This document shows positions 3,189 to 3,818 of a stretch of DNA of 3,818 nucleotides, in pieces (position 1 is the stretch's first letter; each line of letters begins with the position of its first letter). Under the pieces are notes generated by a model. It had not been told where the DNA came from, did no database searches, and was given only the letters and a program-made list of their open reading frames with translations. Made by a program: the position numbers and the translations under genes. This stretch comes from Escherichia coli (lineage in GTDB: Bacteria; Pseudomonadota; Gammaproteobacteria; Enterobacterales; Enterobacteriaceae): assembly GCF_003334255.1 (NCBI RefSeq), contig NZ_QOWU01000113.1; one strand, given 5' to 3'.

Positions 3189-3818
3189 TTACGCGGCAGG
3201 GACATTAACGGTTACTGTCGCCAGAGCAACAAAATTACCGTTATCACTCATGACCACGACCGACGTTGTTCCTTTCTCAAGTGCGTTTACCGTCACTGTG
3301 TTCTCCTTCAACGTGGCTGTGGCCACCGCACGATGCACGGTCGACACCCTTAATGAAGGATCAGACGCATTATCCGGCAACACAGCCACAGTAAGTGTGC
3401 CTGCCTTCCCTTTTTCTAGGGTCAGGGTTTCCGGTTTAATGGTCACACCGGAAACCGGCGTAATTTTAGTGAGATTTTCCGCCATCGACGGGCGTCCCAC
3501 ATTGGTAACTTTCACCGTTCTGGTGATCACTTCCTTCGCCGTCACGGCCTTACCGATACTGCTGACCCAGCCACTGAACACATCCACCGTACCATTCGGG
3601 AACCGGATTTTATAGGCCCTGACATCCCCGCTTTCAAACCATGCGATAAGCCCTTTCTGGCCTTCCTCACCCGGTTTCCAGGCCAGCGTAAAACTGGTAT
3701 CACCTGCAGATTTCTGTCCCTGCCCGGTCGAGGTCCAGTCCGCGTCTTCATCATCCAGGTAGTTATCATCGTAGGATTCTGCCGTCATCTCGCCCGGCGT
3801 CAGATCCTTCACCTTAGC
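3189..3818 (-). CDS. V: Major tail tube protein V (lambda gpV-like), 5'-partial; N-terminal ~35-40 codons beyond window end
   Basis: Minus-strand frame is open to the window edge (3818..3810 reads A-K-V; the M at 3812 in the track is an in-frame GTG Val, not the start). In-window product ...[47 protein letters not shown]...[46 protein letters not shown]... matches the lambda gpV tube domain from memory, followed by a ~95-aa beta-rich Ig-like (Big_2-type) C-terminal domain. Stop TAA at 3191..3189. Confidence 0.93.

Follow-up and report, generated by a model that had tools for sequence, protein, structure and literature searches.

A 3,818-nucleotide stretch of Escherichia coli DNA (hereafter the window) encodes the last 209 residues of a gpV-type tail tube protein (3818..3189, minus strand), the C-terminal domain of which bears little sequence resemblance to its counterpart in phage lambda. 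This raises the question of whether the domain was brought in by recombination or diverged where it stands, and of what such a domain may do on the outside of a tail tube. The sections below take these points in turn, from the gene content of the window to the probable function of the domain.

Gene layout of the window

All real genes of the window lie on the minus strand, in the lambda tail-gene order V-G-T-H. The features are as follows, class 1 being the class of the window's own C-terminal domain in the clustering described below.

3818..3192, minus strand: V, 3' 627 nt; its 5' end lies outside the window and its TAA stop occupies 3191-3189
3477..3818, minus strand: tube-domain part of V (Phage_TTP_12), residues ~40-153 of the 248-aa protein
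3471..3497, minus strand: inter-domain linker G-R-P-S-M-A-E(-N-L), containing the apparent 5' recombination junction (DNA alignments)
3192..3476, minus strand: class-1 Big_2 Ig-like domain, a predicted decoration domain of 95 aa (Pfam, AF2, Foldseek)
3168..3191, minus strand: V stop codon TAA and 21-nt V-G spacer with the Shine-Dalgarno sequence AGGAG for G, within the apparently exchanged module
2736..3167, minus strand: G, tail assembly chaperone, conserved flank (lambda G alignment; PHROG 42)
2709..2296, minus strand: T, an open reading frame entered via the G/T -1 frameshift (phrog_39/32165, tail assembly protein T)
2315..3, minus strand: H, tape measure, first 771 codons, open to the window edge (phrog_24)

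Among the PHROGs, V corresponds to phrog_41, major tail protein (E = 3e-89), and G to phrog_42, minor tail protein G. The full-length V gene is present in Escherichia phage PhiR5_1 (6188-6934 of locus L002), and Z and U lie upstream of V in the near-identical loci of PhiR5_1 and E. coli. A slippery-site search located the G/T -1 heptamer GGGAAAG at 2754-2760 (minus strand), near the end of G, which is the placement expected for production of a G-T fusion chaperone, as in lambda. The true start of G is the ATG at 3167-3165, as judged from homology to lambda and from the AGGAG Shine-Dalgarno sequence; the GTG at 3185 given in a mechanically compiled list of open reading frames falls inside the V-G spacer and was rejected. 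An antisense frame of 245 codons lying over V and G (2878..3615, plus strand) was also set aside: it has no PHROG match, it crosses a junction that is not conserved, and most likely it stays open by chance on the strand facing coding sequence. An Rfam scan of the window returned no RNA families.

Over its whole length the window shares 98.4% identity with PhiR5_1 and 95.7% with PhiR12_1, PhiR12_2, PhiR12_4 and PhiR12_5. The PhiR-numbered phages form a panel of lambda-related temperate phages (preprint 10.1101/2025.11.03.685801). A suspicion that they were laboratory recombinants was dropped because the preprint describes them as a temperate-phage panel. The V gene itself is already in the databases, where it goes by 'major tail protein V' or 'phage tail protein'. 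It belongs to an E. coli temperate phage or prophage of the lambda-like kind, and the window is probably from a prophage. H is annotated as two coding sequences in PhiR5_1 (2742-5314) and PhiR12_2_star (1243-3815) and as one in PhiR12_2, which points to a frameshift, a stop or a mistake in sequencing close to the 3' end of H, beyond the window.

A lambda-like tube domain joined to a Big_2 domain

The N-terminal part of the protein leaves little doubt as to its family. Pfam PF16461 (Phage_TTP_12) matches residues 1-113 of the partial V (E = 2.3e-57, model positions 23-135 of 135), and phmmer retrieves the lambda gpV chains in the PDB (9mfe/7t4f/6p3e) with E = 1e-84. When aligned with lambda gpV (NC_001416), 102 of 114 residues are identical (89.5%), as are 81.9% of the DNA positions, so that the close tracking of lambda gpV up to ...GRPSMAE noted in the preliminary description is borne out. 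Both the type of tube domain and the position in the tail cluster, in the order V-G-T-H with a G/T -1 frameshift site, are those of the gpV family. At this level of identity to gpV-N the protein would be expected to form stacked hexameric rings around the tape measure protein.

The C-terminal domain was matched by Pfam PF02368 (Big_2) over residues 122-202, spanning positions 2-79 of the 79-position model (E = 3.1e-11). Its sequence also matches the C-domain of lambda gpV as solved by NMR (PDB 2l04, E = 5e-11), as well as 7quz, the Big_2 domain of a Paenibacillus glucanase. A weak single-sequence AlphaFold model (pLDDT 61.5) was superseded by one built from an alignment (A1) containing one exemplar from each of 17 C-domain classes; the latter has a pLDDT of 82.8 and eight beta-strands. 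In Foldseek comparisons this model resembles lambda V in the assembled tube (7t4f, TM 0.84), the isolated domain (2l04, TM 0.82 by target length) and the Big_2-CBM56 structure 7quz (TM 0.72-0.76). The C-terminus had been described in advance as Ig-like and of Big_2 type, and the profile match, the confident model and the similarity to the gpV C-domain make that assignment solid. The residues invariant over the 17 class exemplars (P41, D46, R50, G76 and G87 in A1 numbering) are all kept in class 1, which shows local differences such as DPSLR instead of the usual DK(S/T)FR motif.

Thus the protein shares with lambda gpV its two-domain Phage_TTP_12 plus Big_2 architecture, an identical GRPSMAE linker, the C-domain fold and the gene order with its G/T slippery site, and the C-domains are of similar length (95 aa here versus 93 aa in lambda). 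It differs from lambda gpV in the sequence of the C-domain, in the context of the stop codon, in the V-G spacer and in the DPSLR motif.

Extent and edges of the divergent block

The last 95 codons of V (3476-3192), ending ...VTVNVPAA, encode a domain identical to that of lambda gpV at 31 of 91 alignable residues (34%) and at 49.5% of the DNA positions, in agreement with the strong divergence of the final ~95 residues from lambda proposed at the outset. The coordinates and protein sequence then given match the minus-strand open reading frame exactly, with the small correction that the divergent block runs 21 nt lower. Identity to lambda is 91.7% over the 120 nt ahead of the junction and 51.7% over the 120 nt past it. 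A 60-nt sliding window gives ~92% at 3608-3489, 42-53% over ~3460-3190 and 72-83% from ~3188, a block of low identity with two sides rather than a uniform level across the gene.

The 5' break falls, within a few nucleotides, between the codons GAA (3479-3477) and AAT (3476-3474). The 3' break is at 3168/3167, where homology returns at the ATG of G to both lambda (83%) and PhiR12_2_star (97-100%); this second edge is absent from the preliminary description. Since homology resumes only at the G start codon, the stop codon of V and the 21-nt spacer belong to the divergent block, which therefore extends over 3476..3168. The spacer is unalignable with those of lambda, PhiR12_2_star and two further loci (L019 and L020), each class having its own stop-codon context, spacer and ribosome-binding site.

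Both edges are sharp against four comparators: lambda, PhiR12_2_star, L019 and L011. The V of L019 has an N-domain 97% identical to that of PhiR5_1 and a lambda-type C-domain. L011, from E. coli MFDS1022581, is the nearest E. coli relative lacking the class-1 module; it differs from the window at 143 of 307 positions inside 3168-3476 and at 90 of 1209 outside (Fisher p = 4e-53).

Exchange by recombination or divergence in place

A block of this kind might in principle arise if the C-domain had been inherited vertically with its N-domain and had merely changed faster, under diversifying or relaxed selection and with no recombination. Exposed decoration domains do tolerate many substitutions, and dN/dS is indeed higher in the C-domain (~0.37-0.5) than in the N part (~0.08-0.10). 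Synonymous and third codon positions, however, are near saturation inside the block and not outside it. Against PhiR12_2_star, dS reaches 1.18 in the C-domain, compared with 0.36 in the N part and 0.17 in G, and the corresponding identities at third codon positions are 0.40, 0.80 and 0.88; against lambda, dS rises from 0.99 in the N part to 1.78 in the C-domain. The non-coding V-G spacer, moreover, has been replaced along with the domain, and each edge is confined to a few nucleotides. Nothing in the window points to a mutation rate raised locally over 3476-3168, such as a targeted hypermutation system might produce.

The relationships among V proteins bear on the same point. A set of 79 full-length V proteins, made up of 75 among the matches listed and four reference sequences, was clustered at ~65% identity for the C-domains and ~92% for the N-domains, yielding at least 17 C-classes and at least 28 N-classes. 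The N-class to which the window belongs (N18) bears C-classes 1 (that of the window), 5 (the Stx2a/PhiR12_2_star type) and 7 (the lambda type), whilst C-classes 2, 5 and 7 are each found on several N-classes. Among the matches listed, the V proteins with the closest N-domains (96-97%) have lambda-type C-domains only 33% identical to class 1, and the closest C-domains (51-54%, class 2, for example P0165) sit on N-domains that are 82-86% identical. The class-1 module is itself seen on one backbone only, and this constant linkage to a single N-domain lineage is what vertical descent would give; yet N-domains at least 92% identical to one another carry three different C-classes, and these also occur on other N-classes. 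Divergence in place is thus largely refuted, and we regard it as very improbable.

The pattern is explained instead by recombination, through which a cassette running from the linker to G appears to have been joined to a lambda-like N-domain. This reading is favoured because the edges are sharp, silent sites are saturated inside the block only, the spacer is replaced and the relationships of N- and C-domains are reticulate. The drop in identity at about 3477, put forward in the preliminary description as a possible recombination junction, is upheld by its sharpness against the four comparators and by these discordant relationships. The linker motif G(R/K)P.(L/M/V/I)AE lies directly ahead of the break and is common to all 17 C-classes. 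It corresponds to lambda residues 149-153, a flexible loop just before the domain boundary at 156/157 (PMC8718954). Base composition was considered as a sign of foreign origin and discarded, the difference between the module (51.1% GC) and its flanks (54-56%) being too small.

A pair of phages from the PhiR panel offers a further instance at this site. PhiR12_2_star and PhiR12_2 are 97-100% identical at the flanking positions sampled and differ over the equivalent of ~3690-3168 in the window, which takes in the 3' half of the V tube domain together with the Ig cassette, class 5 in the former and class 1 in the latter. The 3' limit of this exchanged segment is exactly the ATG of G. The two phages constitute a natural near-isogenic pair for tests of C-domain function.

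Distribution and origin of the class-1 module

The DNA of the module is present at 99.7-100% identity in five of 50,697 phage records, those of PhiR5_1, PhiR12_1, PhiR12_2, PhiR12_4 and PhiR12_5, in which the hosts named are E. coli C or K-12 MG1655. It was found in 14 of 5,426 complete E. coli genomes (20 places, 99-100% identical), and in seven IMG/VR contigs, every one with the same backbone, in a scan designed to detect near-identical copies only. By comparison, V N-domains of the lambda-like type, taken at 80% DNA identity or more, occur in 2,689 of the 5,426 E. coli genomes, at 5,774 places, and class 1 is much rarer than classes 2, 5 and 10 of lambdoid V proteins. The 90%-identity protein cluster that holds this V (P0157) has 486 member sequences. 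Each module copy examined sits on one N-domain lineage, with at least 98% DNA identity, and the downstream G is more variable among the copies (92-100%).

Within the limited sensitivity of the searches, phages, E. coli genomes, IMG/VR and the protein collections yielded no relatives with identities between 54% and 99%. In the same collections no donor lineage was found, although intermediates could be missed. A word-index search of proteins with the 95-aa domain returned three fragments only and missed the cognate full-length cluster P0157. HMMER returned 5,498 matches to the domain, the best 150 of which are giant multi-repeat Big_2 proteins with 27-44% identity; as HMMER ranks by summed score, single-domain relatives at 50-70% identity could not surface there. 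Beyond the five phage records the best phage match is the V protein of phi80 (47.6%).

Three other classes may be compared with class 1, each having likewise a single Big_2 domain that follows the same linker on a homologous tube domain and is itself followed by G: class 5 (Stx2a/PhiR12_2_star), which also shares an N-domain lineage with class 1, class 10 (phi80/mEp043) and class 2 (252-aa proteins of E. coli and Citrobacter, P0165). Their identity to class 1 is 37% for class 5, 42-48% for the phi80 class and 51-54% for class 2, the nearest among the matches listed.

The exchange appears to predate the sampled spread of this V allele. It has been described above as the arrival of a new C-domain, but it could equally have replaced the N-domain side; every class-1 copy examined sits on one N-domain lineage, which gives no clue to when the exchange took place or in which direction.

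The distribution also bears on whether the module is a functional one. The origin is probably a prophage, many lambdoid prophages of E. coli are defective, the genes neighbouring V in L011 are frameshifted and the V gene of one Stx2a phage is broken by an IS element, so that the domain might be imagined as a functionless or decaying remnant. This is barely credible for a module that has an intact open reading frame, a full-length Big_2 match and a confidently predicted fold, that is conserved at 99-100% in every copy found, and that is carried by PhiR5_1, PhiR12_1, PhiR12_2, PhiR12_4 and PhiR12_5, for which the records name E. coli C or MG1655 as hosts. The adjoining G, T and H are likewise open, and the frameshift site between G and T is intact. 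Signs of constraint come from the intact frame, from a dN/dS of ~0.4-0.5 between classes, from the core residues that do not vary over the 17 classes, and from the conservation of the module over 14 genomes, seven contigs and five phages. Class 1 is very likely a working decoration domain, as judged from genomic evidence: the invariant residues are kept, dN/dS is below 1 and the module is present in phage genomes with named E. coli hosts.

Probable role on the tail tube

In lambda the C-terminal domain of gpV protrudes from the tube, is oriented parallel to its axis, and makes contact with the neighbouring subunit at the beta1-beta2 loop (PMC8718954). The preliminary description called this domain dispensable for assembly. 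That holds in so far as lambda tails still form when gpV-C is deleted, but the deletion is far from harmless, as biological activity falls ~100-fold (Pell et al. 2010, as summarised in PMC8718954). Ig-like domains of tail tubes have been proposed to aid adsorption by binding carbohydrates weakly, which both sources present as a hypothesis (PMC8718954, PMC9022992). Proteins bearing such domains are markedly mosaic (PMC9022992).

We consider it highly probable that a class-1 Ig cassette has recombined onto a lambda-like gpV and, by analogy with lambda, works there as an outer decoration of the tube. The cassette begins in the flexible linker, just after ...GRPSMAE (3477/3476), and stops where G starts (3168/3167), so that the stop codon of V and the spacer with the ribosome-binding site of G travel with the Ig domain. 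Homology arms are probably supplied on one side by the linker and the adjoining end of the tube domain and on the other by the first part of G, and co-resident lambdoid prophages and infecting phages may be the partners in exchange. If the stoichiometry of lambda applies, the tail tube would bear ~190 copies of the domain, and weak, multivalent contacts of these with carbohydrates on the host or mucus surface, and/or contacts between the Ig domain and neighbouring tube subunits, may raise the efficiency of infection. A swap of the cassette would then alter the surface of the tube whilst leaving the tube-forming core untouched.

The second type of contact could be the principal one. It is a live, though less probable, alternative that the recombinant module is mainly structural, stabilising or assembling the tube via its neighbours, with the differences between classes being neutral or co-adapted to the tube. 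The contact with the adjacent subunit's loop and the 100-fold cost of deletion in lambda, as summarised in PMC8718954, are consistent with such a role, as are the residues invariant over 17 classes, and adhesion still awaits experimental proof (PMC8718954). Tight co-adaptation of an interface is, however, hard to reconcile with one N-domain that works with three C-classes only 33-40% identical to one another, and the formation of lambda tails without the domain also speaks against a need for it in assembly, as far as the account in PMC8718954 goes.

A more specific version of the decoration role can also be imagined, in which class 1 binds a glycan of its own, such as a particular O-antigen, capsule or gut mucin, and the cassette serves as an exchangeable 'adhesin cassette' of the tail tube. 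This version is unlikely. If true, it would provide a second and weaker layer of host range besides J and the side fibres, tuning adsorption to hosts or niches.

Comparable domains are known from other phages. The Big_2 domain of T5 pb6, the FN3 domain of SPP1 gp17.1* and T4 Hoc are all exposed accessory Ig-like domains at a C-terminus, nonessential for assembly, mosaic in occurrence and proposed to adhere weakly to carbohydrates, as summarised in PMC9022992. The SPP1 domain is added by a programmed frameshift, whereas the class-1 domain is encoded in frame and in a single copy. The domains of T5 and YSD1 project orthogonally, whereas by analogy with lambda that of class 1 probably lies along the tube.

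Variation elsewhere in the cluster and in related V genes

Other blocks of low identity to lambda (20-55% between flanks of 80-95%) occur in the minus-strand genes at 2860-2770, 2530-2470 and 1330-1110. The first falls in the C-terminal portion of G, shortly ahead of the frameshift site, the second in T, and the third, which is rich in indels, takes up ~220 nt of H, so that mosaicism is not confined to V. In the PhiR panel, ManYZ dependence and the SNIPE defence have been noted to correlate with a stretch of the tape measure protein that varies between phages (aa 300-400; preprint 10.1101/2025.11.03.685801).

Among Stx2a-converting phages, the megablast match to the window ends exactly at 3168 in ~40 cases. 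In the one examined, Stx2a_JNE110649 (L003, ~5600-7200), the Ig domain of V is interrupted by an insertion that encodes an IS3-family-like transposase (...DRGSQYCAYDY...), so that what adjoins G is no more than the final ~50 residues of a class-5-type C-domain.

Databases also hold 'V' proteins of 276-423 aa (P0153-P0163, P0234), several of which contain exact internal duplications of part of V; in one long 'V' the fusion is to a C-terminal segment with matches to Pfam PF09327/PF12421, which seems to derive from a protein of the tail tip or of host specificity. The long V homologues (276-401 aa) were considered as natural tandem-domain variants and rejected, being exact partial duplications or V-J fusions. 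They are most likely assembly chimeras from genomes with several lambdoid prophages.

Implications

It is already established that Ig-like domains occur in mosaic fashion on the structural proteins of phages (Fraser et al. 2006, as summarised in PMC9022992), and class 1 is a real but ordinary case of the known shuffling of decoration-domain modules. What is new here is descriptive, namely a rare, uncharacterised allele class and the precise boundaries of its cassette, including the ribosome-binding spacer of G. It amounts to a documented exchange of a domain cassette, with junctions at the level of the nucleotide, in a textbook phage protein, and it shows the lambda-like tube domains of Enterobacteriaceae carrying at least 17 classes of Big_2 domain behind one conserved linker. 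Without introducing a new kind of system, the finding is relevant to the hypothesis that the Ig domains of tail tubes mediate adhesion. For phage engineering, the interval between the linker and the start of G may represent a natural, tolerated swap site for the display of domains on the tail tube.
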